A DNA stretch of 64,000 nucleotides from NCBI GenBank assembly GCA_015233675.1, contig JADFXH010000003.1, positions 89,279 to 153,278 on the forward strand, given 5' to 3'. The position numbers were made by a program, and so were the translations under genes. The notes beneath the pieces are model-generated. The model saw only the letters and a program-made list of their open reading frames with translations. It was not told the DNA's origin and made no database searches. Position 1 is the stretch's first letter, and the number at the start of each line of letters is the position of its first letter. The DNA is from Candidatus Omnitrophota bacterium. Lineage in GTDB: Bacteria > Omnitrophota > Gorgyraeia > Zapsychrales > Fredricksoniimonadaceae. Positions 4,332-53,960 of this stretch are shown here, one piece after another.

Positions 4332-5891
4332 ATGATCAAAGTCAAACGCGCATTAATTTCCGTTTCCGACAAAACCGGCTTGGTAGAATTTGCCAAGGGT
4401 TTGCAGAAGCTGGGTGTAGAAATTATCTCTACCGGCGGCACCGCAGCGCTTTTACGTTCAGCCAACCTTAAGGTCCAGGAAGTTTCGGAGTATACCGGTT
4501 TTCCTGAAATGCTGGATGGCCGCGTTAAGACCCTGCATCCTAAAATCCACGCCGGTCTTCTGGCTTTGCGTGATAATCCCCAACACATGAAACAGATGGC
4601 CAGCCACGAGATCGGCCTGATTGATATGGTGGTGGTTAATCTTTATCCTTTCGAGAAGGCGATCCAGAAAAAGAACATCTCCCTGGAAGATGCCATTGAG
4701 AATATAGATATCGGCGGCCCTTCCATGCTGCGTTCGGCGGCCAAGAATTATAAAAATGTTGCGGTCATATGTGATCCTGAGCGTTATAACGAAGTGCTCA
4801 ATGAGCTTAATAATAATAGCGGCATTTTATCAGATAAGGTTCTGACTAAGCTGGCCATTGAGGTTTTTGAGCGTACTTGCCGCTATGACGCCGCTATTCA
4901 TGAGTTTTTGAATAACCGATTTAAGGCAGATAATTCTTTCTCCTCTTTCCCTAAAGAGTTTACTTTTTCTTTTAGTAAATTACAGGATTTGCGTTACGGC
5001 GAAAATCCTCATCAGGCCGCGGCTTTTTATAAGGACAGCACTGTGCAGCACGGCCTGGCAGGTCTTCAACAACTGCAGGGTAAGGAACTTTCCTTTAATA
5101 ACATTCTTGATCTGAATGCCGCCGTAGACATCATCCGTGAATTTGATGCGCCGGCGGCAGTCATTATTAAGCATAATAATCCCTGCGGCGTTGCCCAGGA
5201 TAAAAGTATCGATAAGGCGTATCATAAGGCATACAAATGCGATCCTCTTTCTGCTTTCGGCGGCATTATCGGGTTTAACCGCCCGGTGGACGCAAAAACC
5301 GCCGCCGCTGTCATTAAAAGCGGATTTATGGAATGCGTCATAGCTCCCGGGTTTGACGATGATGCGAAGGGGATTTTCTCAGTTAAGAAAAATTTGCGTT
5401 TACTTGTGTTGGATGTTTATGGAGAAGATCTGGAGCCTTTTGACTTTAAGAAAGTATCAGGCGGGCTATTATTGCAGGAAAAGGATAACCGCAGCCTTAA
5501 GCCGGAAGAATTAAAAATAGTCAGTAAGATCAAGCCTACTAAATTACAAATGGATGCTATGATTTTTGGATGGAAATTGATTAAGCATGTTAAAAGCAAT
5601 GCCATTGTCCTGATCAAAGGGACGCAGACTTTAGGTATTGGCTGTGGACAGACCAGTCGCGTGGATTCCGCGATCCATGCCATTCGTCGAGCGGGGAAAG
5701 CGGCTCAAGGGAGCGTTTTAATTTCCGACGCCTTTTTACCTAAGCCCGACACCGTCACTATTGCCGCGAAGGCAGGCATTAAAGCCATTATCCAGACCGG
5801 CGGCTCTATCATGGATGAAGCCGTTATTAAAGAAGCCGACAAAAAAAAGATAGCCATGGTTACAACAGGCATCAGGCACTTTAAACATTAA
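4332..5891 (+). CDS. purH: Bifunctional AICAR transformylase / IMP cyclohydrolase
   Basis: 519 aa. MGS-like N-terminus KRALISVSDKTGLVEFAKGL...STGGTA. Conserved ENPHQ and the C-terminal formyltransferase region QTGGSIMD...RHFKH. Confidence 0.93.
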   Translation: MIKVKRALISVSDKTGLVEFAKGLQKLGVEIISTGGTAALLRSANLKVQEVSEYTGFPEMLDGRVKTLHPKIHAGLLALRDNPQHMKQMASHEIGLIDMVVVNLYPFEKAIQKKNISLEDAIENIDIGGPSMLRSAAKNYKNVAVICDPERYNEVLNELNNNSGILSDKVLTKLAIEVFERTCRYDAAIHEFLNNRFKADNSFSSFPKEFTFSFSKLQDLRYGENPHQAAAFYKDSTVQHGLAGLQQLQGKELSFNNILDLNAAVDIIREFDAPAAVIIKHNNPCGVAQDKSIDKAYHKAYKCDPLSAFGGIIGFNRPVDAKTAAAVIKSGFMECVIAPGFDDDAKGIFSVKKNLRLLVLDVYGEDLEPFDFKKVSGGLLLQEKDNRSLKPEELKIVSKIKPTKLQMDAMIFGWKLIKHVKSNAIVLIKGTQTLGIGCGQTSRVDSAIHAIRRAGKAAQGSVLISDAFLPKPDTVTIAAKAGIKAIIQTGGSIMDEAVIKEADKKKIAMVTTGIRHFKH

Positions 5892-5931: not shown

Positions 5932-7230
5932 ATGAACTCTTCAGAGGTGCATACTTATTTAAATTCTTTTACCAATTTTGAATCCCAGCTTCATAAACTG
6001 CTCCCCGAAGATTTTAATCTCAACCGCATCCAAAAATTTTTGGATTTAGCAGGTAACCCTGCAAAGAATTTAAAAATTATCCATGTGGCAGGCACTAAAG
6101 GTAAAGGTTCGACTTGTGCGTTTTTAGCCAGTATTTTGCAGGAGGCGGGCTTCAAAGTCGGGCTATACACATCGCCCCATCTGCACAGGGTCAATGAACG
6201 TATCCGTATTTTAAATACGGAAAATATCCGATCAAAAGATAATTTCAGCGGATCTATCGGCGAGGAGGAGTTAGCATGCGTGCTGACAGATTTGCGTCCT
6301 TTTGCTGCTGCCATCCAAAACGAAGGAAATATCCTTACTTTTTTTGAAGTCCTGACAGTGGCGGCCTTGTATTATTTTGCCAGAAGCCAAGTGGATATTG
6401 TTATTCTGGAAACCGGTTTGGGCGGACGACTGGATGCGACTAACGCAGTGGATTCTTCTATTGCTGTGATTACTCCGGTGAGTCTGGACCATGCCCGGAT
6501 TTTAGGTTCTACGTTGAGCCAAATAGCATCTGAGAAGGCCGGTATTATTAAGAATTCCAACCAGAAAGTCGTGATAGCTCCTCAAGAAAAGCAAGCGATG
6601 GATGTTATTCTCAACCGCTGCCGGGAATTTGGCATTCAGCCCATACTTGTGTGTCCGGATAAATATGAAAATTTAAGGATAGGACTCAAGGGCAAGCATC
6701 AAATGATGAACGCTGCGCTGGCCGTTGAAACGTTGACAGTTTTAAAAACGATGGGATTTAAAATCAGCGATGAAGCGGTGAGTGAAGGATTAAAGCATGT
6801 CCGTTGGCCCGGCAGGTTTGAATTGTTGCAAGAGAGTCCGGATGTGATTGTCGATTGTGCGCATAATGGGGCCTCCGCTCAAGCATTGTCCCGGGCCTTG
6901 AAGGAGGTTTATCATCATCGACGATTGATTTTAGTGCTGGGGATATCCCAGGACAAAGACATAGCGGCCATTTGTTATCATTTAAAAGACAATGCGGCAC
7001 GCATTATTTTGACCAAGGCCCAACATCCCCGGGCGCATCTGTTTACACAAGCAGAGTGTAATGATTATTTCGGTGATAAGCCTTTTGAAATCATAGAGAG
7101 TTTGTCTCAAGCCCTAAAAAAAGCTTTACAAATAGCCCACGTGCAGGATGTTGTTGTAGTGACGGGTTCAATTTTTGTAGTCGCAGAGGCCATTGATTGT
7201 TTAGTCAATAAAGAGCGCGGGCAGGGATAA
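5932..7230 (+). CDS. folC: Folylpolyglutamate synthase / dihydrofolate synthase
   Basis: 432 aa. Mur-ligase P-loop HVAGTKGKGST, LETGLGGRLDATN, and length typical of FolC. Confidence 0.88.
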   Translation: MNSSEVHTYLNSFTNFESQLHKLLPEDFNLNRIQKFLDLAGNPAKNLKIIHVAGTKGKGSTCAFLASILQEAGFKVGLYTSPHLHRVNERIRILNTENIRSKDNFSGSIGEEELACVLTDLRPFAAAIQNEGNILTFFEVLTVAALYYFARSQVDIVILETGLGGRLDATNAVDSSIAVITPVSLDHARILGSTLSQIASEKAGIIKNSNQKVVIAPQEKQAMDVILNRCREFGIQPILVCPDKYENLRIGLKGKHQMMNAALAVETLTVLKTMGFKISDEAVSEGLKHVRWPGRFELLQESPDVIVDCAHNGASAQALSRALKEVYHHRRLILVLGISQDKDIAAICYHLKDNAARIILTKAQHPRAHLFTQAECNDYFGDKPFEIIESLSQALKKALQIAHVQDVVVVTGSIFVVAEAIDCLVNKERGQG

Positions 7231-7493
7231 ATTTGGTCTTTGCGTTGACTCTGATTTGGCGCATTAGCATGGATGAACAGGTATTATGTATTCGGCACGG
7301 AATATTTTTGCCGTCTGCTTCGGTTTACGACAATTTTGTTCTAAAGATTCTCTTCATTTGGAACAAAATTGTCATAAATCCTCGCAGACTTTTGGCAAAA
7401 AATTCCCGAATGTGCCGAATACATAATACCTATTCATCCATGAAGCAACAAATCAGCCAGGAGCAAAAAGAATAAATTCATCCCTTATAATGC
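7224..7493 (+). repeat. Composite palindromic element: family-2 arms bracketing hairpin-family copy A
   Basis: The left arm gggataaatttggtcttt...ctgattt (7224-7257) is imperfectly complementary to the right arm aaatcagccaggagcaaaaagaataaattcatccc (7450-7484). The right arm plus cttataatgc matches the arms of the full family-2 palindrome at 26039-26276. The left arm overlaps the folC stop. Confidence 0.7.
7268..7442 (+). repeat. Long-hairpin intergenic element, copy A (family 1, subfamily with loop TAAAGATTCTCTTCATTTG)
   Basis: Outer arms catggatgaacaggtattatgtattcggcac / gtgccgaatacataatacctattcatccatg. Inner arms tacgacaattttgttc / gaacaaaattgtcata. The core ggaatatttttgccgtctgc pairs with gcagacttttggcaaaaaattcc. 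The track ORF 7233-7475 is a translation of this repeat. Confidence 0.9.
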
Positions 7494-7518: not shown

Positions 7519-8916
7519 ATGTATCAGTATAAAGGCTTGGAAGACACGATCGCGGCGATTGCTACCCCGGCAGGACAAGGGGGTATTGGCATTGTGCGTA
7601 TCAGCGGCAAAGATGCTGTTACAGTGGCCGATGCGGTTCTTCGCCTTCAAGGCAAGAAGACATTAGTCCAAAGCAAAAGTCATACGCTGCAGCACGGATG
7701 GGTCATCAGTACTAAAAGCAAAGAAATCATTGACGAAGTCTTAGTGACGCTGATGCGGGAGCCTAAAAGTTACACTACCGAGGATGTCGTTGAAATTAAT
7801 TGTCATGGCGGTACGACTGTCTTGCGCGCGGTCCTCCATGCGGTGTTAGACGCGGGGGCCCGTCTGGCAACCCCCGGAGAATTTACCAAACGGGCATTCC
7901 TGCATGGCCGCATGGACTTGACCCAGGCGGAAGCGGTGATTGATGTCATCAATGCTAAGACAGAAACATTTTTACGTCAGAGCCATCATCAATTAAAAGG
8001 GGAATTGTCAGATGAGCTTAAAGCTATCCGGGAAGAGTTAATAAAAATATATATGATAATGGAAGCCTTGATTAACTTCCCGGAAGATGACATTGACGCT
8101 CAAGGCCGTCAGCAAATATTAGACCGCATCGGTAATCAAGAGAAGCTCGCAGCCAAACTTTTGGGGTCTTCTAAGAGCGGACGAATCCTTAAAGATGGAG
8201 TGCGTATTGTCTTATGCGGCAAGTCCAATGTCGGCAAGTCATCATTACTTAACGCATTGCTCAAAGAGCAGCGGGCCATTGTTACCGATATTGCCGGTAC
8301 CACCCGGGATGTGCTGGAAGAGTCAGCACAGCTTAAAGGCATCCCTGTTTCGTTGGTGGACACCGCAGGCATATTGGAACCAAGAGATTTGATTGAAGAG
8401 GAAGCGGTTAAGCGCAGTCATCTTTATATTAAAAGCGCTGATTTGGTGCTTTTAGTTTTGGACCATAGCCGTCCTTTAGAAGAGCTGGACATGCTGCTTT
8501 TGGAACAATTAAAATCTGCTCAAGTTTTAGCGGTGGTTAATAAAATGGATTTAGACGGGCAGATAGACATGTCAGTCCCTGAAGGGATATTTGGCAGGGA
8601 ACATGTTTTAAAAATTTCTGCGCTTGAAGCCAGATCAATTTCGCAACTGGAGGCAAAAATTGTTGACTTGATTTGCAAGGACAAAAATTTTGATGCTCAC
8701 GGCATTTTTATCAGCAATATCCGGCATATTAAGGCTTTAGAGGAAGCTCAAAAGAATTTGCAAGACGCCTGCCGTTTAATGATTGAAAATGTTTCCTGGG
8801 AATTCATTTCTGAAGAAATTAAAGCTGCAGTTAATCAAATGGACGCCATCACCGGCCGCAACATCGATGAAGACTTGTTAGACCGTATTTTTTCCGAATT
8901 TTGTATAGGCAAGTGA
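7519..8916 (+). CDS. mnmE: tRNA modification GTPase MnmE
   Basis: 465 aa. G-domain motifs GKSNVGKSSLLN, DTAG, NKMD. C-terminal ...FCIGK tetrapeptide characteristic of MnmE/TrmE. AAGGAG Shine-Dalgarno present. Confidence 0.93.
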   Translation: MYQYKGLEDTIAAIATPAGQGGIGIVRISGKDAVTVADAVLRLQGKKTLVQSKSHTLQHGWVISTKSKEIIDEVLVTLMREPKSYTTEDVVEINCHGGTTVLRAVLHAVLDAGARLATPGEFTKRAFLHGRMDLTQAEAVIDVINAKTETFLRQSHHQLKGELSDELKAIREELIKIYMIMEALINFPEDDIDAQGRQQILDRIGNQEKLAAKLLGSSKSGRILKDGVRIVLCGKSNVGKSSLLNALLKEQRAIVTDIAGTTRDVLEESAQLKGIPVSLVDTAGILEPRDLIEEEAVKRSHLYIKSADLVLLVLDHSRPLEELDMLLLEQLKSAQVLAVVNKMDLDGQIDMSVPEGIFGREHVLKISALEARSISQLEAKIVDLICKDKNFDAHGIFISNIRHIKALEEAQKNLQDACRLMIENVSWEFISEEIKAAVNQMDAITGRNIDEDLLDRIFSEFCIGK

Positions 8917-9102: not shown

Positions 9103-9801
9103 TTAATTAGCGGTTTTCTGCTGCGCTTGGCTTTTGTAGACAGCCATGACTTTTTTCATTGTTGCGGGGTCGCTCATGATTTGCTGGGTTAATTCCATCA
9201 TTTTGGGGTTGCGCATCAGTTTCACAAGGTCATGGTCTTCGATTTCTTTTTGGATTTCAGGGTCCTGCAGGATTTTTTGGAAACGGGGATCTTCTGCTAA
9301 TGTTTTTGTGTCAGGGGTTGGGGAACTTGTGTTTACAGAGGGGCTGTTTTTTAAGGGAGCAAAAAGAACATCTTCAAAGGGTTTAGAGAGAATGTAAGAC
9401 GCGGACTGCAGCACATCATTGTGTACGGCGGTCAATGTTTTTCCTGCAGGCGGTATTACAGACAATAGGATTAAGGATAAGATAATAAACACCCATCCCC
9501 AGATCAAAGTCAGGATGGACCCTGCCAGGCGGCTTAGGACAGTTGGTTTTATATCTGTATTGGTGATATCTGTCCACGTTTTTAGAAGAAATTTTAAAAG
9601 CAGATGCAAAAGTAAAGGGCCGATCAGTCCTATGGCCAGGCTTACTATCATGTTCTTGGTGCTTTGATAATAAATGATGCTGATGATAGTGGCAACTATA
9701 ATAGAGAAAGGACCTAATAGGGATTGCACAAAACCGCGTGAGGCCCCGCGGCTAAGCAAGAATAAACTTAGAAAAAATGTGATAAAGTCTGTTATAGCCA
9801 T
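9103..9801 (-). CDS. CvpA-family membrane protein with a charged helical C-terminal extension
   Basis: 232 aa. The N-terminus MAITDFITFFLSLFLLSRGASRGFVQSLLGPFSIIVA plus 4 hydrophobic segments fits CvpA. The C-terminal ~70 aa are soluble and repetitive (DPRFQKILQDPEIQKEIEDHDLVKLMRNPKMMELTQQIMSDPATMKKVM). Confidence 0.55.
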   Translation of the reverse strand: MAITDFITFFLSLFLLSRGASRGFVQSLLGPFSIIVATIISIIYYQSTKNMIVSLAIGLIGPLLLHLLLKFLLKTWTDITNTDIKPTVLSRLAGSILTLIWGWVFIILSLILLSVIPPAGKTLTAVHNDVLQSASYILSKPFEDVLFAPLKNSPSVNTSSPTPDTKTLAEDPRFQKILQDPEIQKEIEDHDLVKLMRNPKMMELTQQIMSDPATMKKVMAVYKSQAQQKTAN

Positions 9802-10005
9802 TTAATGTTCTGTCACAAAGCGCAGCTGTGCAAGATAATAGATAATAAGGAACACGCAATAGGCCAGAGGAATGATAAAACAGGCCTTGATGATCCATGG
9901 AAAACTTAGCTTAAGTTTAGACTTAGCTAATTTTTCCTTGATTTTGTTGTATTCTTCTATGGAAAGTTGCTTAGCTTTTTGGGAATTTTTAGTATTTTGC
10001 AACAT
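9802..10005 (-). CDS. Small single-pass membrane protein (hypothetical)
   Basis: 67 aa with a Lys-rich N-terminus then one TM segment (WIIKACFIIPLAYCVFLIIYYL). Its TAA stop abuts the ATG of the CvpA-like gene (9801/9802). Confidence 0.4.
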   Translation of the reverse strand: MLQNTKNSQKAKQLSIEEYNKIKEKLAKSKLKLSFPWIIKACFIIPLAYCVFLIIYYLAQLRFVTEH

Positions 10006-13823: not shown

Positions 13824-14021
13824 CTGCAAACCAGGGAAGTATGGACAGCTATTATGTATTCGGCACGGGAATATTTTCGCCGTCTGCTACGGTGTACAGT
13901 TTGGATGCTATCGCGATAAGGCATACGCGGCATCCAAGCTGTAAAGCCTTGCAGACTTTTGGCGAAAAATTCCCAAATGTGCCGAATACATAATAGCTGT
14001 CCATGCTTCCCGCGATTGCAG
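13824..14021 (+). repeat. Long-hairpin intergenic element, copy B (family 1, subfamily with TATCGCGATA apical module)
   Basis: Arms ctgcaa..gggaagtatggacagctattatgtattcggcac / gtgccgaatacataatagctgtccatgcttccc..ttgcag. Same core (gaatattttcgccgtctgc / gcagacttttggcgaaaaattc). A different apex: tacagtttggatgc-tatcgcgataaggcatacgc-ggcatccaagctgta. Confidence 0.9.
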
Positions 14022-20604: not shown

Positions 20605-20864
20605 ATTTAAATTTGTTCTTTTTATTCGTGACGTAATATATTCCGTGATGGATGAACAGATATTATATATTCGGCACGGGATATTTTTGCCGTCTGCTTC
20701 GGTTTACATCAAAAATATTCTAAAGATTCTCTTCATTTGGAATATTTTTGATGTAAACCCTCGCAGACATTTGGCGAAAAATCCCCGAATGTATCGAATA
20801 TATAATATCTGTTCATCCTTGCGGATATGCTAAAGCACAGTCGCTTCAAATAACAAATTTAAAT
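20605..20864 (+). repeat. Composite palindromic element: family-2-type arms bracketing hairpin copy C
   Basis: atttaaatttgttcttttt (20605-20623) is complementary to aaataacaaatttaaat (20848-20864). The right flank gcacagtcgcttcaaataacaaattt matches the right arm of the 26039-26276 palindrome (gacacagtcgcttcaaagaacaaattc). Confidence 0.7.
20650..20818 (+). repeat. Long-hairpin intergenic element, copy C (family 1)
   Basis: Arms ggatgaacagatattatatattcggcac / gtatcgaatatataatatctgttcatcc. Inner arms tacatcaaaaatattc / gaatatttttgatgta (perfect). Apical loop identical to copy A. The track ORF 20645-20833 is a translation of the repeat. Confidence 0.9.
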
Positions 20865-26038: not shown

Positions 26039-26276
26039 GCGAGCATTATAAGGGATGAATTTGTTCTTTTTGCTCCTGGCGTCATTTTCTTAACGCCAAA
26101 AATTCTTATGATGACGCGGTGGTCAAACAACTCGTCCCGACGATTTCTGTTCGTCGGGACTCAAACATGTTTGACCATTTAAGACTGAGGTCGTAAATGC
26201 CCTCGTCATCATAAGTTTTTTGGCTAAAAATGACACAGTCGCTTCAAAGAACAAATTCATTCCTTATAATGCTCGC
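26039..26276. repeat. 238-bp family-2 palindrome with nested internal hairpins
   Basis: Outer arms gcgagcattataagggatgaatttgttcttt / aaagaacaaattcattccttataatgctcgc. Nested pairs cttatgatgacg/cgtcatcataag, ggtcaaaca/tgtttgacc, gtcccgacg/cgtcgggac. Confidence 0.85.
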
Positions 26277-26311: not shown

Positions 26312-26485
26312 GAAGGATGAACAGCTATTATGTATTCGGCACATTTGGGAATTTTTCGCCAAAAGTCTGCAAGGCTTTACAGATTGGATGCCGTGAATGA
26401 TTTATCGCGATAGCAGCCAATGTGTAAACCGTAGCAGACGGCGAAAATATTCCCGTGCCGAATACATAATAGCTGTTCATCCTTC
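26312..26485 (-). repeat. Long-hairpin intergenic element, copy D (family 1, TATCGCGATA subfamily, inverted relative to copy B)
   Basis: 31-bp perfect outer arms gaaggatgaacagctattatgtattcggcac / gtgccgaatacataatagctgttcatccttc. The core and apex are the reverse complement of copy B's. Confidence 0.9.
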
Positions 26486-36169: not shown

Positions 36170-36346
36170 GCTTAGATGACCGGCTATTATGTATGCGGCA
36201 CATTCGGGAATTTTTTGCCAAATGTCTGCAAGGATTTATGACGAAAATGTTCCAAATGAAGAGAGTCTTTAGAACAGTTTCGTCATAAACCGTAGCAGAC
36301 GGCAAAAATATTCCGTGCCGCATACATAATAGCCGGTCATCTAAGC
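36170..36346 (-). repeat. Long-hairpin intergenic element, copy E (family 1, inverted)
   Basis: 32-bp perfect outer arms gcttagatgaccggctattatgtatgcggcac / gtgccgcatacataatagccggtcatctaagc. The apical loop is the reverse complement of copy A's with one substitution. The track ORF 36159-36383 (-) is a translation of the repeat. Confidence 0.9.
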
Positions 36347-39316: not shown

Positions 39317-42300
39317 ATGAAAAAGGCGTTTTGTATACTGACCCTCTTGTGCTTTTTGGTCACAAGCATCTTGGGGCCGAGCCCTGTTTTCGCTCAGTCT
39401 GCCTTGCCGGCAGGCAGTGATATTCGTTTGCCTGCACCAGGGCAAAGGGTCCATTTAAGCCAGCCATTTAATCCCCCAATCCTTAAAGGGATCAAAATCC
39501 ATCCTAATAATCCTTTCCGTTTTGATTTTATTCTGGACAAAGGAGATCTAGAGACGCCATTAATGGCGTCTCTACAAAATGAATCAACGAAATTAATCAA
39601 ATATTTCCTGGCCAGTTTAACCATCCCCGAAAAAGACCTGTGGGTAAACTTATCCCCGTATGAAAAAGACAGTATAGTCCCGCAGTCTTTTGGTCAAACA
39701 GAGATGGGGAGAGATCTGTTGGCTGAAGATTACATTCTTAAGCAAATAACAGCATCGCTTATTTATCCTGAAGATGAGGTTGGTAAGAAATTCTGGAAGC
39801 GGGTATATGAAGAAGCAGCTAAAAGATTTGGATCGACAAATATTCCGGTCAATACTTTTAATAAAGTTTGGATAGTTCCAGCAAAAGCGGTGGTTTACGA
39901 GAATGTTGAAGCGAAAACAGCATATGTGGTTGAATCGAAATTGAAAGTAATGCTTGAGCAGGATTATTTAGCTTTGTCAAAAAATCAAATGCAAACCAGT
40001 GGCCGCCAACCAGGGGACATGTTCAATATAGAACAACAAAAGAACGTGTCCCCAAGCACGCTGCCAAACGAATTAGGGCTGAATGTGAAAGCTCCCCCAG
40101 GGCAACATTCCAACGATTTACAAGGCGTCAATGAATTAGGCTCCAAAATCGTCAGGGAAATCGTCATTCCCGAACTAACCAAAGAAGTCAACGAAGACAA
40201 GAATTTTTCACAACTTCGTCAAGTCTACAATTCATTGATTCTAGCGACATGGTACAAAAAGAAAATTAAAGACAGCATCCTGGCACAGGTGTATATAGAT
40301 AAGAAAAAGGTTTTGGGCGCAGGTTATGAGCTAAGTATTATCCCAGAGTTGCCGACCAGGGGACGTGTCCCCGCTTTTGGGGACGTGTCCCCAAGCTGTA
40401 CGCCAAGCAGCAAAGGGCTGAATGTGAAAGCGACCCAGAGGAACAAGCCTAACGATGTGGAACTTATCTACCAACGCTACCTCCAAGCTTTTAAAAAAGG
40501 CGTTTACAATTATATCAAAGAGGAAATTGACCCTGCCACTGATGAAACGATACCGAGAAAGTATTTTTCGGGAGGATTTGATGCAACAGATTTTGCTCAA
40601 CTAACCTTAGAAACAGTAAATACAATTGATTACGCTCAGTTAGGGGATTTGACCCACATGGTTAAGATTTCTGCCGGAATTAATGTGGTTGATAAGGCCA
40701 TGATAAGTAATGAGCAGATGAATGCAAAATTGATCGATGCTTATCAAGGCCCTTCTGATGAAGAAATGGTGGATTTGACCCCGTGGTTTGGAGAAAGCGC
40801 TCTAAAAGAGGGATTCTTGAAAAATTCTTTTATTTTACCCAATGGTAAGACTTGGGGGCGGCAGGTGTACATGAGAGTTGGGGGGGGGTTAAGAAAAGTG
40901 GAAGTCATTGTTCATAAGAAAAATAGGGAGGTAACAGGCATTACATTAGTAGGCTATAAAGGGGATGAAGTGAGCAGCCAAAGCCAATGGATATGGGATG
41001 GGGAAAAATTTAATTATAAAGTCCCGGAAGATAAAATTATCCAACAGCAGATAGAAAATAAGGTAACGCAAGAGTTAATGGATGCCTATAATAATGGCCC
41101 TGACGGTGTAGAGGTAAAACTAACCGAGTGGATTGGAGAAGTTCCCTTGAGAAAAGGATATATGAAAGCATCTTTTATTTTACCAAACGGGGAATTTTTG
41201 GGACGAAATATGGGTTTGGGGCTCATGAATTTGACACAAGTTAAAGCAGTTATTCATAAGAAAGGAGGCAAAGTTGAAGGGATAACTTTAGTTGGTTATA
41301 GGGAAGAGAAAGAGGTTGTAAGAAATAAATGGGAATGGGATGGGAATAACCTGAACTATCCAAAACAGCAGATAGAGGACAAGGTAAAACGGGAATTAGT
41401 CAATGCTTATGAGAGCGGGCCGGACGGAACCCTTGTAGATATAACTGATTTTATTGGGAAAAGCTCATTAGATTTTGGACTCATGAAATCATCGTTTATT
41501 TTGCCTGATGGAGATACATGGGGCCGGCAGGAATCGATGAGGGTTAAAACTAAATTGACAAAAGTAAAAGTTGTTATTCATAAGAAAAAAGGAGAGGTTT
41601 CAGGAACAACTTTTATTGGTTATAAAGGAGATAAAGAAGCAGGGCGCAGTGAATGGCAATGGGATGGAAAGAAATTTATTTATCAAGAAAATAAAGTAAA
41701 ACAAGAATTAATAAATGCCTATGAAAACGGGCAGGACGAAACGACGGTAGATATAACTGATTTGTTGGGAGAAAGAAAATTGAAAGACGGGGTCTTGGGT
41801 ATGTCATTTATTTTACCAAGTGGTAAAACCTGGGGCATTGAAGAAGCGATGAAAGTGGGGGTTAATTTAACGTCAAGTAAAGTGGTTATACATAAAAAAG
41901 AGGGAAAAATCGTTGGAATAACTTTGATTGGTTATAGAGGCGAAAAAGAATGGGGCCGCAGTGAATGGACATGGGATGGGAAGAAGTTTAGCAGTTATTC
42001 TCAAACTAAGCAACGTCAGGTAGGGGATAAGGAAATGGAAGAGGTAGTAAATGCTTATCGGGATGGGCCTGATGGGAAAATAATAGATTTGACCGACTGG
42101 CTTAAAGGAAGCTCTTTGGAATCAGGCACTATGAGAGGGGCATTCATCTTACCTAATGGTGATATTTGGCATGGCTATGAGTATATGAAAGTAGGGATAA
42201 ATTTAACACAAGCTAAAATAGTTGTTCATAAAAATGAACAAAATGTTACAGGTATTACTTTTATTGGGTACAGAGGAGACAAAGAAATAGGGCGAAGTGA

Positions 42301-45300
42301 ATGGGTATGGCATGAAAATAAGTTTAATTATCATGCCCCAGCAGATAAAGCAAGGCAGCAAGAGGCCGGGGATAGGGTAAGGCAGGAATTAATTAGCGCT
42401 TATCAGAATGGTCCGGATGGGACAACAATTGATTTAACTGATTGGCTAGGAAAGGCCTATTTGAAAAATGCTCTATTAAGGAATACGTTTATTTTACCTG
42501 ATGGGAATACTATGGGAAAATCAGGAAATGAAACAAGAACAAAAATTGGAGCTGTCAATTTAACACGAATGAAGGTGATCATTCATAAGAAGGCAGACAA
42601 TGTTGAGGGACTTACTTTTGTTGGTTATAGGGGCGATAACGGAATTGAGAAGGAAGTTGGGCGTAGTGAATGGCAATGGGTGGGGGGAAATTTAAATTAT
42701 CAAGCCTCAGAGGATAAAATGAAGCAGCAGCAGATAGGGGATAACGTCAAGCAAAGATTAATGAGGGCTTACCGCGAAGGCCCTGATGGGAAAGAAGTGG
42801 ATTTGACGGATTGGCTGCAAGAAGAAAATTTAAAAAGAGGAGTCATAAAGAATACATTTATTTTGCCCAATGGCGCGAACTGGAGAAATAGAGAAAATAA
42901 TTATATGAAGGTAGGCATAAATTTAACCCAGGCGAGCGTTGTTATCCACAAGAACGATAATAAGGTGGAGTCAATAAGTTTTGTGGGTTATAAAGATGGA
43001 CAGGAATCAGGCCGAAGCCAATGGTTATGGGATGGCACAGAATTTATTTATCAAAACAATGTGCTTAAAAATCATCCTGATGTTCAAGAAGCCATTGCAT
43101 CAATAACGAAGAATTTAGATGAAATATTCCTAAATAATCTTGGAGAATTGACGGGGCGTTATGTAGTGGATATAAAGAATTTGTTATGGGGATTAGCAGG
43201 GCATCAATTAAAAGGCAAGTACGATGAAGAAACAATCAGGAAGCTGATTGATAATCAACTTAGGGAGTTATTTGAAGAAGAGGAAGGTCTTCAATCCATT
43301 GATACAGTTGATATCAAAGAACAGGGCAAAGAGGAGTCTCCTGGATTTTTAGAAGAGCCCAATCTAACGCAGGAAGAGATTTCAGCCTTTGGACGGGCAG
43401 TTGAAGAACATCTTAAGAATTTAGAGCAGGATGAAGGTTTACGGAACATTGTACGGGATCAGGCCAAGAACTTTATCCGTAAATTAGAGGAAAAATATTT
43501 TTTCAGGCAATATTATCGGGATTTCCCGCAAGATTTATTAGGCCAGGAAGTGTCGGTGATGCTGGATCTGGCTATTGAAGAAGAAAAAGGAAGTATTACC
43601 AAAGAGGTTTTAGGGGATATATTACAAGAAGTCAAAGAAGCGCTGGCATACCAGGAAAAATTAGTAAAACTTGGCGTTAAGACACCGATGAATTTATATC
43701 AATTGTTAACCATGAAGAAAGTTTTAGATTTAAAAGGGATAGTCTTGGCTGATGAAATGGGCCTCGGCAAGACGCTTCAAGCACTGGCTTCTTTTTTACT
43801 AAGCGGGAAAGAGGAGATGTTGGTTTTAGGGCCCAAATCTGTCTTGAGCCGGTGGATGGATGATATGGGCAAGCACCTTGATACGCCGTTGGAACTTGTT
43901 ATTTTAGGTGAGTTTGATCCGTTGCTAATTTTATCTGAGAATCCGAAAATAAAGATTACGGTAGTCAGGAAAGAGGACAGGTTTAATTATATTTTAAATC
44001 CCCGGCCCCCCGCAACAGAAGGGCACAAGCGAGTAGTCTTAATGAATTATGAATTATTGCCGAATATGCAGAACTATCGACATAAGAATCAATTGCCGGC
44101 CATCCACACAGATTTTCTTGCCCTTGATGAAGCTCATTTATTAAAAAACCGTTACACAGACACTTCCAAAGCTGTGTATGGAGATTCACAAGGCCAGGGA
44201 TATATCGAAGCTGAATATAAAATGGTGATGACAGGAACGCCGCTGGAAAACAGGCCGCAGGACATGTATGCGCCGTTACAATATTTGGCAAGAGGCGGCA
44301 CGAGCGATGAGGAGAAGTTTTTTGCCGGTTTAACTGCCCGCCAATTTGCCGCTAACTTTGCCAAAGAGAGACTAGACCGTTTGTCGATGTTACATAGCTA
44401 TATATCGTCCCGCATGGTTCGTCGATATAAAGAGGATGTTTTAACAGGATTGCCCCAAAAGGAAGAAAAGATCGTAAAATTAGACCCTTTGCGCAGAGTG
44501 ATGAAAATAGGAGACAGAGAAATCCCGCTTGCGGGCAATTACCAGCAGCAAATGAGTTTATACGAGAAAGCTTACAGTGCGCCGGGATACTTTGATCGTA
44601 AGTATATTCAATTTGATGACGAAGAAGACATTAGTGAGACACCGGAATCAGAAGTCACGGAAGAAAAAAGTTCCCGGAGTCGGCATGGGATACAATTGAT
44701 TCGGATGGAGCAAGCGGCTTTAAGTCCGGATTTTTTTGAAGAAGGCGCTGATTCGATCAAGTTTGATGCCGCTAAAATGCTTGTTAAAGAAAGAGTGGCC
44801 CAGGGCAAATCGGTAATTATTTTTTCAAATTACCGTCAGCCTTTAGGGAAATTGCGCAGTGAAATAAGCCAAATGATCGGTGAAGATCAAGTGGCCTATG
44901 TGGATGGTACGGTAGTTGATAATGATCGTCAGAAACAAATAGACCTTTTTCAGGCAGGCCAAGCTAAGGTTATGGTGGCGACTATCGCCACTTTAGGGCT
45001 AGGGATTGAGTTGACCCAAGCGGATTCAATAATTTTTTTAAATTACCCCTGGAAGCCATCTACATTTAAGCAAGCCATTGACCGGGCTCATCGACGGGAT
45101 GATCAGCGTAATATGCCCGGCAAGAAACTGGAGATCATAAGCCTTGAGTACGATGCTCCCATGTCTATAGATCATGAAAAGGCAAAAGTATTAAAACGCA
45201 AGAACATCCTGGCTGAGATGATCATAGAAGGAAATTTGACTCCGGAGGTTTTACGAGCGTTTCGGGATGTTGATAAACGGCTGGTCGATAGTTTAAAAAA

Positions 45301-46834
45301 GTCATCGGATAGCATGGTGCTAATGGATCCTTTTGAATTATCATTGTTGCAGGAAGTAAGGCTGATCATCGGACAGATCGCCCATACCAATGATATGGAA
45401 AAGCGTCGACAATTATGGGACAAAACAGCTCAATTATATACTATAACTTTAGAGCACAGCGCTTCCTTTTATGCAAATTTAGCAGGTTTGGACTACTTAA
45501 GCAGTGATGCCTTTCCTGAATTAAAAGGATATGAAATTAAGGCTTTGGATCTTGCCTCGGGCCCGTCGACATTATACCGGGCATATGAACGGGGGGGGGC
45601 ACATTTGCGGCAAAATGGCTTAAATTTGGATATAACAGACTATGATGCGAATGTCATGATGTTACGGCTGGGACAATACCGCGAGGGCCAACAAATGGCA
45701 GGTCACATGGATGATTTGGGCAAAGCCATGGATGAAGGGAAACTCAAGGAAGGTCAATATGGACTTGTTAATATGTCATACGCTTTAAAATATACTGATC
45801 ATCCGGCAGCGCTGATGAAGAATATTCACCGGCTATTAAAAGAGGGAGGGGTGTTCTCTTTAATTTTACCGGATACTCATATTATCCCGCCTTCTTTTAT
45901 AGAAGCTATGCAGGCATTGGGGTTTGAGTTAAAACCGGGAGCAAAATTGATTTCCAGTTTGGATGATGAAACTTATAAATCCCTGGTGGAGGAGTATGGG
46001 GAGGGGTTTGCGCAAGATGTCCGCACTCAAACTCAAGGCAGTTTTACCTATTTAGTGGCAAGGAAAGCGGCTGAAACAGAATTGGCGGGGGTTGTGACGG
46101 ATAAAGATTTTCTGATGAGCCGAAAGGTCCCCATTGAATGGGGCAGGGATAAGGTAGAAAAGATGTTAGGCTATGAATCGAAGATGAAAATCATCCCTGA
46201 GACAGTCATGGTCCGTGGTGATGTTGTTTTTACAGAAGACTTATTAACTGATCTGCTTATGCCTCCCGCAGAAGAAACTGATTTAATGAAAATCAACAAA
46301 ATATTACGGCAGCCATTACGGTTGATATCCCAACTATCAATTTATAGTCATCAATGGGCAGAGAATCGCAGCTCAAGGCTTAAACAGGAACTTCTCAACG
46401 AGAAATTGATCGCATTGTCCGGTGATTTAACAGACTGGATAAGCGAACATGGCAGAGATTTAGATAGGGACCAAAAAGAACAATTGAGATTACGGATTGA
46501 ATCCTTAACATCTGTAGATAGAGTAAGGCAGTGGTTTATCCGGCATTTGGAAATTATTCAGGAATTACGCAGTGCCTTAGATGCGGCTATGAGCACAAGT
46601 TTAGTCAATACTCAAGCAGATAAAGGCGGGATTGATTTAACATCTGATAAGGTATTTTCTATCCAAAATAACGGCCAAGGCATTAAATTCCAAATTGATC
46701 CCGTTATGCTTCGACAGTTGCAAAACGCCTCGGGCTTTGTGCCTGTGATTATCGATATCCAGCCGATGACGGATTTACGGAAATTTTTAGGTCTGCAGGA
46801 AAATGCGGCCAGTACGCCCAGCATCGCCACTTGA
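39317..46834 (+). CDS. Giant exported multidomain protein: signal peptide + unknown N-module + 7 tandem repeats + SNF2 helicase + SAM-methyltransferase-like domain + unknown C-module
   Basis: 2505-aa uninterrupted ORF. The N-terminus MKKAFCILTLLCFLVTSILGPSPVFA/QS looks like a Sec signal. SNF2 motifs LADEMGLGKTLQALA (I), LALDEAHLLKN (II, DEAH), MTGTPLENRPQDMY (III), VMVATIATLGLGIELTQADSIIFL (V), KQAIDRAHRRDDQ (VI). Methyltransferase-like ALDLASGPSTL ... LVNMSYALKY ... LLKEGGVFSLILP. Confidence 0.85.
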   Translation: MKKAFCILTLLCFLVTSILGPSPVFAQSALPAGSDIRLPAPGQRVHLSQPFNPPILKGIKIHPNNPFRFDFILDKGDLETPLMASLQNESTKLIKYFLASLTIPEKDLWVNLSPYEKDSIVPQSFGQTEMGRDLLAEDYILKQITASLIYPEDEVGKKFWKRVYEEAAKRFGSTNIPVNTFNKVWIVPAKAVVYENVEAKTAYVVESKLKVMLEQDYLALSKNQMQTSGRQPGDMFNIEQQKNVSPSTLPNELGLNVKAPPGQHSNDLQGVNELGSKIVREIVIPELTKEVNEDKNFSQLRQVYNSLILATWYKKKIKDSILAQVYIDKKKVLGAGYELSIIPELPTRGRVPAFGDVSPSCTPSSKGLNVKATQRNKPNDVELIYQRYLQAFKKGVYNYIKEEIDPATDETIPRKYFSGGFDATDFAQLTLETVNTIDYAQLGDLTHMVKISAGINVVDKAMISNEQMNAKLIDAYQGPSDEEMVDLTPWFGESALKEGFLKNSFILPNGKTWGRQVYMRVGGGLRKVEVIVHKKNREVTGITLVGYKGDEVSSQSQWIWDGEKFNYKVPEDKIIQQQIENKVTQELMDAYNNGPDGVEVKLTEWIGEVPLRKGYMKASFILPNGEFLGRNMGLGLMNLTQVKAVIHKKGGKVEGITLVGYREEKEVVRNKWEWDGNNLNYPKQQIEDKVKRELVNAYESGPDGTLVDITDFIGKSSLDFGLMKSSFILPDGDTWGRQESMRVKTKLTKVKVVIHKKKGEVSGTTFIGYKGDKEAGRSEWQWDGKKFIYQENKVKQELINAYENGQDETTVDITDLLGERKLKDGVLGMSFILPSGKTWGIEEAMKVGVNLTSSKVVIHKKEGKIVGITLIGYRGEKEWGRSEWTWDGKKFSSYSQTKQRQVGDKEMEEVVNAYRDGPDGKIIDLTDWLKGSSLESGTMRGAFILPNGDIWHGYEYMKVGINLTQAKIVVHKNEQNVTGITFIGYRGDKEIGRSEWVWHENKFNYHAPADKARQQEAGDRVRQELISAYQNGPDGTTIDLTDWLGKAYLKNALLRNTFILPDGNTMGKSGNETRTKIGAVNLTRMKVIIHKKADNVEGLTFVGYRGDNGIEKEVGRSEWQWVGGNLNYQASEDKMKQQQIGDNVKQRLMRAYREGPDGKEVDLTDWLQEENLKRGVIKNTFILPNGANWRNRENNYMKVGINLTQASVVIHKNDNKVESISFVGYKDGQESGRSQWLWDGTEFIYQNNVLKNHPDVQEAIASITKNLDEIFLNNLGELTGRYVVDIKNLLWGLAGHQLKGKYDEETIRKLIDNQLRELFEEEEGLQSIDTVDIKEQGKEESPGFLEEPNLTQEEISAFGRAVEEHLKNLEQDEGLRNIVRDQAKNFIRKLEEKYFFRQYYRDFPQDLLGQEVSVMLDLAIEEEKGSITKEVLGDILQEVKEALAYQEKLVKLGVKTPMNLYQLLTMKKVLDLKGIVLADEMGLGKTLQALASFLLSGKEEMLVLGPKSVLSRWMDDMGKHLDTPLELVILGEFDPLLILSENPKIKITVVRKEDRFNYILNPRPPATEGHKRVVLMNYELLPNMQNYRHKNQLPAIHTDFLALDEAHLLKNRYTDTSKAVYGDSQGQGYIEAEYKMVMTGTPLENRPQDMYAPLQYLARGGTSDEEKFFAGLTARQFAANFAKERLDRLSMLHSYISSRMVRRYKEDVLTGLPQKEEKIVKLDPLRRVMKIGDREIPLAGNYQQQMSLYEKAYSAPGYFDRKYIQFDDEEDISETPESEVTEEKSSRSRHGIQLIRMEQAALSPDFFEEGADSIKFDAAKMLVKERVAQGKSVIIFSNYRQPLGKLRSEISQMIGEDQVAYVDGTVVDNDRQKQIDLFQAGQAKVMVATIATLGLGIELTQADSIIFLNYPWKPSTFKQAIDRAHRRDDQRNMPGKKLEIISLEYDAPMSIDHEKAKVLKRKNILAEMIIEGNLTPEVLRAFRDVDKRLVDSLKKSSDSMVLMDPFELSLLQEVRLIIGQIAHTNDMEKRRQLWDKTAQLYTITLEHSASFYANLAGLDYLSSDAFPELKGYEIKALDLASGPSTLYRAYERGGAHLRQNGLNLDITDYDANVMMLRLGQYREGQQMAGHMDDLGKAMDEGKLKEGQYGLVNMSYALKYTDHPAALMKNIHRLLKEGGVFSLILPDTHIIPPSFIEAMQALGFELKPGAKLISSLDDETYKSLVEEYGEGFAQDVRTQTQGSFTYLVARKAAETELAGVVTDKDFLMSRKVPIEWGRDKVEKMLGYESKMKIIPETVMVRGDVVFTEDLLTDLLMPPAEETDLMKINKILRQPLRLISQLSIYSHQWAENRSSRLKQELLNEKLIALSGDLTDWISEHGRDLDRDQKEQLRLRIESLTSVDRVRQWFIRHLEIIQELRSALDAAMSTSLVNTQADKGGIDLTSDKVFSIQNNGQGIKFQIDPVMLRQLQNASGFVPVIIDIQPMTDLRKFLGLQENAASTPSIAT
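40703..43051 (+). repeat. Seven tandem ~105-123-aa protein repeats inside the giant ORF
   Basis: Unit consensus: L..AY..GPDG..VDLTDWLG...L..G.....FILPNG..WG......MKVG.NLTQ.KVVIHKK...V.GIT..GY.G.KE.GRSEW.WDG..FNY. Unit ends fall at 41017, 41359, 41683, 41998, 42331, 42700 and 43051. Confidence 0.85.
43690..45110 (+). other. SNF2-family helicase/translocase core (domain of the giant ORF)
   Basis: GLGKT at about 43760-43774, the DEAH box at 44125-44136, and helicase-C motifs through IDRAHRRDDQ at about 45080-45110. Confidence 0.8.
45480..46070 (+). other. Class-I SAM-dependent methyltransferase-like domain (domain of the giant ORF)
   Basis: Motif I-like LDLASGPS, an acidic post-I residue (ITDYD), and motif III-like LLKEGGVFSLILP. 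No (D/N/S)PP(Y/F/W) DNA amino-methyltransferase motif is seen in this domain. Confidence 0.5.
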
Positions 46835-47369: not shown

Positions 47370-47540
47370 CATTGGAATGAAGCGGGAAAGTTACGGAGGG
47401 AGGCTCGGAATTGATGTTTAGGGCGGACGGTAAGTGATGTTAGGGCGAATAAGGGAAACTACCGTTCTATAAGGCTTCTGTAAACGGATTTGAACCAGGA
47501 GCACCTAAACATCAAGGCCGAGACAGGCCCCGCCGCTGGA
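47370..47540 (+). promoter_or_regulatory. Conserved structured leader, copy 1 (upstream of clpB)
   Basis: Arms ctcggaattgatgtttagg (47404-47422) / cctaaacatcaaggccgag (47504-47522) enclose ~80 nt. Followed by the conserved gacaggccccgc and ctggattaat. Paralogous to 53755-53917. Confidence 0.4.
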
Positions 47541-53570: not shown

Positions 53571-53747
53571 GGCCGCGAGTAAAAATATATTACTTTCCAC
53601 ACGGAATATTTTCGCCGTCTGCTTCGGTTTACAACAAAAATGTTCTAAAGATTCTCTTCATTTGGAACATTTTTGTTGTAAAACCTTGCAGACATTTGGC
53701 GAAAAATTCCTTAATGTGTGGAAAGTAATATATCTTTACTCACGGCC
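53571..53747 (+). repeat. Long-hairpin intergenic element, copy F (family 1, divergent outer stem)
   Basis: Outer arms ggccgcgagtaaaaatatattactttccacac / gtgtggaaagtaatatatctttactcacggcc. Inner arms tacaacaaaaatgttc / gaacatttttgttgta (perfect). Core and apical loop as in copies A and C. Confidence 0.9.
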
Positions 53748-53754
53748 ACTAGTG

Positions 53755-53917
53755 CATTGAATTATGGTGGTATTAGCGGGTGTCATTAGCCTCGATATTA
53801 AGGCGCGCACGGCACCTGCACAAGTGGGCGGTTTAGGGGGCACTATCGTCGGTGCTGCTGTTAAGGTTGCCCTCGCTTGAGGAGCACCTTAATGTTGAGG
53901 CTAATGACAGGCCCCGC
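53755..53917 (+). promoter_or_regulatory. Conserved structured leader, copy 2 (upstream of dnaJ)
   Basis: Arms gtcattagcctcgatattaagg (53782-53803) / ccttaatgttgaggctaatgac (53887-53908) enclose ~83 nt. Followed by gacaggccccgc (53906-53917) and ctggatctaat. Paralogous to 47370-47540. Confidence 0.4.
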
Positions 53918-53960
53918 GTAAACGGCATATCTCTGGATCTAATTTGGAAAGTTATATCTT

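Follow-up and report, generated by a model that had tools for sequence, protein, structure and literature searches.

The closest described counterparts of the element considered here are the repetitive extragenic palindromic (REP) sequences, which occur as REPINs or REP-BIMEs with RAYT proteins and, like the present family, form abundant intergenic hairpin repeats from two inverted conserved halves (PMC3116915, PMC3733652). The REP unit itself is an imperfect palindrome of 20-40 base pairs (bp) that bears an unpaired tag, GTAG or CGTC, on one of its ends (PMC3733652). Our element, copy F, is a hairpin of 177 nucleotides (nt) between dnaK and dnaJ, at positions 53571-53747 of a 64,000-nt stretch of a Candidatus Omnitrophota genome (contig JADFXH010000003.1, positions 89,279 to 153,278; hereafter the window), in which five further copies, A to E, are found. 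Its long closing stem, P1, abuts a core of two helices (P2 and P3), an asymmetric internal loop and a further helix (P4), topped by an apical domain. Like REPINs, these repeats are non-coding, persist within lineages, occur in either orientation and form mosaics with other palindromic units, and both are thought to act as folded single strands. Yet, the Omnitrophota halves pair with each other and not with themselves, CGTC lies within paired P2/P3, and GTAG is present on the other strand only in the A:T variant of the internal loop, so the repeat does not consist of REP units. The conserved halves also lie inside a long variable closing stem and not at the ends, and the core is conserved phylum-wide, whereas REPINs are species-specific. 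A cognate RAYT was found neither in the window nor in 117 loci; a tblastn search of both with the Y1 protein of L113, one of seven relatives of the window organism (L111 to L117), gave no match at E-values up to 1e-3. In L113, this RAYT-like Y1 transposase gene (PF01797; 780-1397) is flanked by GGTGACAGTCACC hairpins, and related GGTGACACACAC palindromes fill the dnaK-dnaJ spacer (9920-9990), making up a separate REP-type system in a close relative. A RAYT link was rejected, as the only Y1/RAYT-like gene encountered accompanies a different repeat.

ERIC (IRU) sequences of the Enterobacteriaceae are likewise imperfect palindromes of more than 100 nt that lie in intergenic transcribed regions among housekeeping genes, are conserved beyond the species, occur in both orientations, vary in size by internal insertions at fixed sites and differ widely in copy number. 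While ERIC is conserved over its full length, including the ends, the Omnitrophota repeat has variable ends and an invariant interior, and the two share no sequence similarity. Correia elements (CREE/NEMIS) and other miniature inverted-repeat transposable elements (MITEs) are similarly small, non-coding and multicopy, show insertion polymorphism and nesting, and form long hairpins if transcribed. However, MITEs have conserved terminal inverted repeats and a target-site duplication, whereas the Omnitrophota family has at least 43 classes of arms and no duplication was seen. The attC sites of integrons, with a similar length of 57-141 nt, are recognised as a folded single strand in which the stem sequence is free, structure and a few unpaired bases matter, and one strand is selected. 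Here, however, the interior is strictly conserved, the opposite of attC; the stem ends lack R/L boxes (GTTRRRY), no cassette array or integrase is nearby, and copies stand singly among housekeeping genes. Finally, IS200/IS605 insertion sequences have two subterminal hairpins at their ends, a Y1 tnpA gene and a fixed tetra- or pentanucleotide target, while the Omnitrophota element is one long hairpin with no tnpA nearby and no fixed motif common to its flanks. As the family fails the defining tests of REPINs, MITEs and attC, it was placed among interspersed palindromic repeats but not assigned to any named family. Several other candidates were rejected by eye, including the HrcA operator CIRCE (half-site order and spacing wrong, by eye), the Neisseria uptake sequence GCCGTCTGAA (a resemblance of only 8 nt, inside a far larger conserved structure), dif/Xer sites (AT-rich resemblance only, with unconserved arms) and the cores of hammerhead and other small ribozymes (motifs absent, by eye).

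Copy F is a genuine member of a hairpin-repeat family found across Omnitrophota genomes. The family, with elements of ~165-200 nt, is apparently undescribed, as no description was found in the literature on Omnitrophota or Omnitrophica palindromic repeats, structured RNA, MITEs, REPINs or RAYTs. Whole copy F is matched by the nhmmer family profile with E = 3e-45, and it carries both family signatures: the left core TTTTYGCCGTCTGCTWCGG followed by the right core CCTYGCAGAC...GCCRAAAA, and a closing helix P1 of at least ~22 bp that abuts the core, with bulges on the right side only (in F, a 32-bp P1 and the bulges ATTT and TTAAT). Read along the plus strand, F begins with the left arm of P1 (53571-53602, GGCCGCGAGTAAAAATATATTACTTTCCACAC), followed by the left halves of P2 (53603-53616, GGAATATTTTCGCC) and P3 (53617-53622, GTCTGC) and the left side of the internal loop (53623-53625, TTC). 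P4 (GGTTTAC / GTAAAACC) and a type-1 apical hairpin with conserved loop occupy 53626-53685. The descending side comprises the right side of the internal loop (53686-53687, TT), the right half of P3 (53688-53693, GCAGAC), the bulge ATTT (53694-53697), the right half of P2 (53698-53710, GGCGAAAAATTCC), the 5-nt bulge TTAAT (53711-53715), which is conserved in the family as nnAAT or nGATT, and the right arm of P1 (53716-53747, GTGTGGAAAGTAATATATCTTTACTCACGGCC).

The two arms are complementary at 30 of 32 positions. The first-pass annotation of this DNA had given the coordinates of copy F and both arm sequences exactly, but it described the stem as broken by one mismatch and a one-nt bulge on each side; the arms in fact contain no bulge and two mismatches, both transitions (C53576·A53742 and A53584·C53734). 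On the minus strand both read as G·U, giving 32 of 32 paired positions, and since full pairing of the stem exists only there, copy F was assigned to the minus strand. The predicted fold has an energy of -100.7 kcal/mol on the plus strand (z = -16.7) and -105.7 kcal/mol on the minus strand (z = -16.5), and 0 of 200 shuffled sequences were as good in either case. The neighbouring genes encode DnaK (HSP70, E = 9e-219) and DnaJ, and the latter matches, with 100% identity, a protein recorded as DnaJ in a Candidatus Omnitrophica metagenome-assembled genome (MAG). No promoter-like or terminator-like sites were found in or around F.

The family was surveyed with a census based on regular expressions and nhmmer and with a MAFFT alignment. 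The census scan used the exact core 19-mer, with one genome per species, and gave at least 110 loci; because an exact 19-mer was required, the sample is biased towards intact cores. The window copies and the matches listed provide 71 complete copies from more than 40 Omnitrophota assemblies (MAGs or single-cell genomes). With taxon labels taken as given in the sequence records, all listed matches bearing the right half are labelled Omnitrophota or Omnitrophica, or Planctomycetales/Planctomycetia in a few third-party assemblies. Matches to the 19-mer in Clostridia, Rhizobium, Vibrio and others are coincidences within coding sequences that lack the right half. A viral origin was likewise rejected, as three IMG/VR matches to the 19-mer lack the right half and are therefore attributable to chance. 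Rfam 15 at gathering thresholds gave no match in the window and only tRNAs in 18 element-bearing loci, while its E-value mode returned only sub-threshold microRNA-hairpin models for the F region.

Across the family, the order of parts described above is constant. P2 is an A/T-rich helix with GCC/GGC at its end, P3 is GTCTGC/GCAGAC and P4 is GGTTTAC/GTAAAnCC, while a few conserved types of apical domain exist. The core hardly varies: in an alignment of 15 sequences from the clade nearest the window (A4), all six P3 pairs and most P2 pairs are unchanged. Each element has two bulges, both on the right side, one of which carries inserts of ~16-20 nt in some genomes. These inserts replace the 4-nt bulge between P3 and P2, the site of ATTT in copy F, in L002, L003, L008, L014, L015, L019, L024, L040 and L083, and they are related within one genome and different between genomes; at the same site, L099 and L109 have an insertion of another small hairpin element. 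L103 (~4480-4580) has a half-element in which the complement of the left arm comes immediately after the left arm and left core, and which looks like a deletion derivative with the paired stem retained. Two unpaired bases of the P3/P4 internal loop, one of them the middle base of the left side, co-vary among the copies listed (T:C 34, A:T 29, T:T 2, A:C 0), and F (53624, 53687) is one of the two T:T exceptions. On the strand on which pairing is favoured (see below), the two common combinations read G·A and A-U. This covariation could reflect a tertiary or non-canonical contact, or just two old sub-lineages.

While the core is held constant, the closing stem is a structural module rather than a fixed terminal repeat. 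When the 24 inner positions of P1 were compared over the 71 copies listed, in an ungapped register anchored on the core, mean identity of the left arm between copies was 0.35. A left arm is complementary to its own partner at 0.80 of positions and to the partner of another copy at only 0.31; full pairing within copies is missed mostly because many stem classes contain a conserved internal loop. By single-linkage clustering at 75% identity or more, these copies fall into at least 43 outer-stem classes, and all four Watson-Crick pair types are seen at nearly every P1 position. The earlier proposal that the outer arms are not a fixed terminal inverted repeat sequence is thus borne out. The same picture emerges from A4, for which RNAalifold gives 64 pairs, 38 of them with double changes; 94.0% of alignment cells are paired, compared with 79.0% in shuffles and 37-47% with slid partners, and 0 of 500 shuffles reach any of five measures. 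In the outer helix, changes on both sides occur at 21 of 22 pairs. Most close-clade copies start with a GATG-type sequence that is absent from F, and judging from these sequences, a short terminal motif may therefore still matter.

In the window, the 19-mer TTTTYGCCGTCTGCTWCGG has exactly six exact matches, one in each of the copies A to F, and the strand carrying this core is plus for A, B, C and F and minus for D and E. The strand of copies A-E is taken as that bearing TTTTYGCCGTCTGC. Copies A (7268-7442, plus), C (20650-20818, plus) and E (36170-36346, minus) have a type-1 apex, whereas copies B (13840-14005, plus) and D (26312-26485, minus) have a type-2 apex. The consensus arm GATGAACAGCTATTATGTATTCGGCAC or variants of it form both arms in four of these five copies and one arm in the fifth, where none would be expected by chance. 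Copy D has arms identical to the family consensus, which form 31 bp without a mismatch, and copy E has a perfect 32-bp stem. The window copies adjoin housekeeping genes, such as those for Mur ligase/MnmE, universal stress protein/MnmG and DnaK/DnaJ. Copy F is 0.88-0.91 identical to A-E in the core, but only 0.35-0.55 in P1. The consensus core and apical loop reported for it earlier are indeed present, as all 26 core pairs are identical to those of copy D and the apex is 0.82-0.91 identical to those of A, C and E. Of 27 aligned P1 pairs, in turn, F shares 11 with D, while 15 are double-changed and still paired, one is changed on one side (to G·U) and none is broken.

How unusual this stem is can be judged from its place among other copies. 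The number of P1 pairs identical to D, out of 27, is 22-25 in A-E, L013, L036 and L058, 18 in L115, 16 in L032, 13 in L031, 11 in F, 10-11 in L011/L072 and 4 in L001. Copy F therefore has the most divergent stem in the window, yet is an ordinary member of the family. The first-pass annotation, which saw in F the most extreme paired change in the window and asked how many stem classes and intermediates exist, was accordingly right about the divergence, but with the graded series from 25 down to 4 and the many classes, paired change is the rule in this family and not an exception.

The history of copy F was examined by comparing the hrcA-grpE-dnaK-dnaJ locus in the seven relatives, in which DnaJ identity is 84-88%. 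The dnaK-dnaJ spacer is empty in L111 and L117 (5 nt), holds an unrelated GT-rich palindrome in L113 (88 nt) and a small hairpin in L116 (83 nt), and contains a terminator-like hairpin and a minus-strand tRNA gene in L114 (347 nt). In L115 (~500 nt), a family copy lies 9 nt past the dnaK stop codon but has another P1 (GGCTGGGCAGGTATTCTATTTTCGGCAC). Finally, the 1451-nt spacer of L112 contains a tRNA gene, an extra open reading frame and an ortholog of F. The minus-strand tRNA genes of L112 (Ala-GGC, 8687-8761) and L114 (Val-AAC, 9816-9891), part of whose anticodon arm is repeated in the left flank, indicate the extent of foreign material that this spacer has taken up. In the L112 ortholog, the F-type arms and the right core are kept, as are the initial 9 nt of P2, and the flanks are similar or orthologous, while another small palindrome stands in place of the left core and apex; the stem of this ortholog is still paired at 30 of 32 positions.

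Each arm of F is identical to its L112 counterpart at 29 of 32 positions (91%), while third codon positions of the flanking genes are only 0.565 (dnaJ) and 0.588 (dnaK) identical. Silent sites thus neared saturation while the arm sequence of F stayed nearly constant, which argues that the arms were inherited and constrained rather than freely rewritten. A scan of a metagenome collection for F-type arms matched only the L112 contig, and as the F-type arms are confined to one locus in F and L112, they represent a single-locus lineage older than the split of the two organisms. The earlier description of the arms of F as rewritten does not hold, since they do not derive from the A-E arm and the orthologous site carries the same type. 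Similarly, the claim that only the helix matters, and not its sequence, was too strong: among the six arm substitutions between F and L112, there is one compensated pair (C-G versus T-A), and the other four are one-sided, each giving A·C on the plus strand and G·U on the minus strand. The pattern is consistent with selection against single changes in the stem and with a rarity of double changes.

The direction of these mismatches recurs in the family. Of the isolated transition mismatches in P1 of the copies listed (flanked by three or more matches on either side, in unique contexts), 25 read as G·U on the strand complementary to TTTTYGCCGTCTGC and 5 on the other strand (binomial p = 3e-4). 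A bias of the opposite direction would be expected from compositional skew: among the copies listed, the core strand is the G-rich strand in 48 of 73, and it runs in the same direction as the flanking genes in 34 of 51. The observed bias therefore indicates selection for pairing on a single strand, which in F is antisense to dnaK-dnaJ, and the simplest explanation of such selection is an element acting as a folded single strand. G·U pairs are rare overall (16 of 960 cells, against 886 Watson-Crick), and this rarity is expected from established nearest-neighbour behaviour more for DNA hairpins, in which G·T is only mildly tolerated, than for RNA helices. We favour folded single-stranded DNA over an RNA gene or mRNA element, though an RNA role is possible. 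In copies of the majority type (for example L008, L003 and L026), the core strand is pyrimidine-rich on both sides of the apical base above P4, and its complement is purine-rich there and can be drawn as Watson-Crick pairs broken by tandem G·A/A·G. As far as can be told from such drawings, the complement is once more the likelier of the two strands to fold.

The distribution of copies resembles that of mobile DNA. Searching with the family profile detected six copies in the 64-kb window and two in 116.6 kb of syntenic DNA from the seven relatives, both in the dnaK-dnaJ spacer. Orthologous sites differ in occupancy: the spacer is free of the element in L111, L117, L113, L114 and L116, and L114 and L116 also lack an element where the window has copy E. 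Among the copies listed, 64 of 73 are cleanly intergenic, in both orientations and between housekeeping genes. Truncated or interrupted copies occur, for instance in L010, L090, L103 and the interior of the L112 element. The P1 of the A-E type is combined with two unrelated apex types (A, C and E versus B and D), and the type-1 apex occurs with two P1 types; P1 and apex modules thus assort independently.

Copies are also nested in other palindromes. A second palindromic family of ~240 nt, with arms GGGATGAATTTGTTCTTTTTGCTCC, has an intact copy at 26039-26276, and its arms recur at ~7224-7266 / 7445-7492 and 20605-20621 / 20848-20864, centred on copies A and C, respectively, so that A lies at the centre of a degenerate second-family palindrome and C is nested within second-family arms. 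Copy B stands at the centre of a further imperfect palindrome of ~16 bp (13824-13839 / 14006-14021), and D and E are flanked by copy-specific inverted repeats of 4-5 bp. In this genome, therefore, sequences do insert at hairpin tips or are exchanged around them. The right arm of the second family also contains an outward-facing promoter-like TTCAAA-16-TATAAT (26243-26270), and its outermost GGATGAA resembles the stem end of the A-E type.

Taken together, the repeat looks like small mobile DNA rather than a dedicated regulator of dnaJ, and we consider it somewhat probable that F is an old resident copy of a structure-dependent, non-autonomous repeat, probably acting as a single strand, while A-E are a recent burst of another lineage. 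Under this model, the invariant core, with P2, P3, the asymmetric loop, P4 and two one-sided bulges, would be read sequence-specifically by some enzyme, and the apical domain would be drawn from a few conserved types. The closing helix, of 24-32 bp, would travel with each lineage and would have to pair. Pairing would be selected on the complement of the TTTTYGCCGTCTGC strand, with the element acting as a folded single strand, likelier DNA. Copies A-E would stem from one master lineage, whereas F would belong to another that has been inherited vertically in the dnaK-dnaJ spacer since before the split from L112; being an old copy of a separate lineage, F would then differ from A-E at most arm positions and still pair. 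In this model, mobility through an enzyme, the single-stranded DNA form and the lack of a dedicated role at dnaJ are the parts that we infer.

Several observations weigh against this reading. No target-site duplication is seen at the flanks of A-E, which are inverted and not direct (CATG/CATG, GAAG/CTTC, GCTTA/TAAGC), and no transposase or other partner protein was found in the window and loci. An autonomous parent did not appear either, as none of the copies listed has its halves separated by cargo. With relatives at ~85% DnaJ identity, the spacers are unalignable and no filled/empty pair fixes the exact ends; strain-level look-ups with the exact DnaJ and GrpE sequences returned no record. 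As the F lineage has no second copy in the metagenome scan, the mobility of F itself is not demonstrated. The core is conserved throughout the phylum beyond what is usual for MITEs and REPs, and such conservation would fit a functional RNA as well. The orientation bias among the copies listed is modest (34:17 relative to flanking genes, 48:25 relative to GC skew), and the known bias of IS200/IS605 runs the opposite way.

The main rivals differ in how they account for a stem that is variable and yet paired. Given the nesting at tips and the exchange of modules, F could be a chimera in which a family-1 core was inserted at the tip of an older spacer palindrome, a terminator hairpin or another element, that is now the outer stem of F, without any compensatory evolution. 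The centres of palindromes are commonly occupied in this genome, as at A, C and B and in the inverted flanks of D and E, the L112 ortholog has had its left core and apex swapped for another small palindrome, P1 and apex assort independently, and the F arms are unique to this locus. Moreover, a GGGCCGC...GCGACCC hairpin just past dnaK in relatives resembles the outermost GGCCGCG / CACGGCC of F. However, L112 has this dnaK hairpin and the F ortholog as separate features, and F-type arms were never found in the metagenome scan without parts of the family-1 core. F also retains the family junction, with CAC|GGAATA on its left side and AATTCC, then the 5-nt bulge, then GTG on its right side, and A-E show P1 being carried along with the core. 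Nearly every copy has its own P1, with L011/L072 and L001 as divergent as F and the graded series connecting them, and we therefore regard the chimera as unlikely. A similarly low expectation attaches to arm-to-arm correction, in which template switching or gene conversion within the hairpin, an established mutational mechanism for quasi-palindromes, erases or copies mutations without selection for pairing. The almost wholly Watson-Crick stems, the exact double changes that make up most differences among A-E, and the L112 stem, which stays paired around a wrecked core, are all consistent with correction. Yet, a neutral process predicts no strand bias, against the 25:5 observed; it leaves the conserved one-sided bulges and loops, which have not been symmetrised, without explanation, and alone it does not explain at least 43 unrelated arm classes around one core.

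More doubtful still is the reading of the element as a structured RNA, be it a small RNA gene or part of an mRNA acting in cis (stabiliser, processing site or terminator), with P1 as a closing helix selected in RNA. A conserved core with covarying helices, unpaired positions that are conserved or co-vary, and a strand-specific G·U asymmetry would all be expected of an RNA, and the purine-rich loops of the majority type, drawable as tandem G·A pairs on the favoured strand, may point the same way. Against this, no conserved promoter was found upstream of either end, outside the variable stem, and nothing promoter- or terminator-like lies around F. G·U is very scarce for an RNA helix, the favoured strand is antisense to its neighbouring genes two times out of three, and no Rfam family matched the element in the window or the 18 loci. 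Close relatives also have very different copy numbers, and some copies are truncated or interrupted. Finally, it could be speculated, with low probability, that the repeats form a new, structure-defined class of element in which a dedicated enzyme reads the core in one folded strand, the extent of the hairpin delimits the mobilised unit and insertion at tips adds outer layers, or that the core represents a new kind of functional RNA, or a ribozyme-like fold, that has spread in repeat form. Insertion at the tips of other hairpins, with gain of outer layers, would explain stems that are variable but always paired.

Omnitrophota are an uncultivated, widespread phylum with very small cells and compact genomes, and to our knowledge their non-coding DNA is essentially uncharted. 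The whole family, more than copy F alone, deserves attention, as it inverts the usual layout of miniature elements, with a conserved interior, variable termini and stems that show textbook paired change. If the mobilised unit is indeed defined by structure, this would represent a new way of moving DNA, and the family would offer a handle for discovering the enzyme by phylogenetic profiling. Hairpins of 100 kcal/mol within operons such as dnaK-dnaJ likely affect transcription read-through, mRNA processing and assembly quality, and these repeats should be masked in searches for regulatory RNA.

Two further features were observed. Immediately upstream of heat-shock genes there is a conserved branched structure of ~140 nt, at 53775-53920 (dnaJ) and 47395-47535 (clpB) in the window and at 9800-9975 (dnaJ) in L112. 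It has the motifs TTGAT.TT.AGG.GCG.ACGG and CAGGAGCACCT.AA and a compensated long-range stem (z = -5.3); it has no Rfam match and was not found in the other loci. From its predicted fold, it may be a heat-shock leader or RNA thermosensor, which suggests that dnaJ has its own regulatory leader downstream of F. In addition, a giant open reading frame of 2505 amino acids (39317-46834) lies in a region of unusually strong GC and AT skew, with GC skew reaching 0.33 at 40-44 kb.

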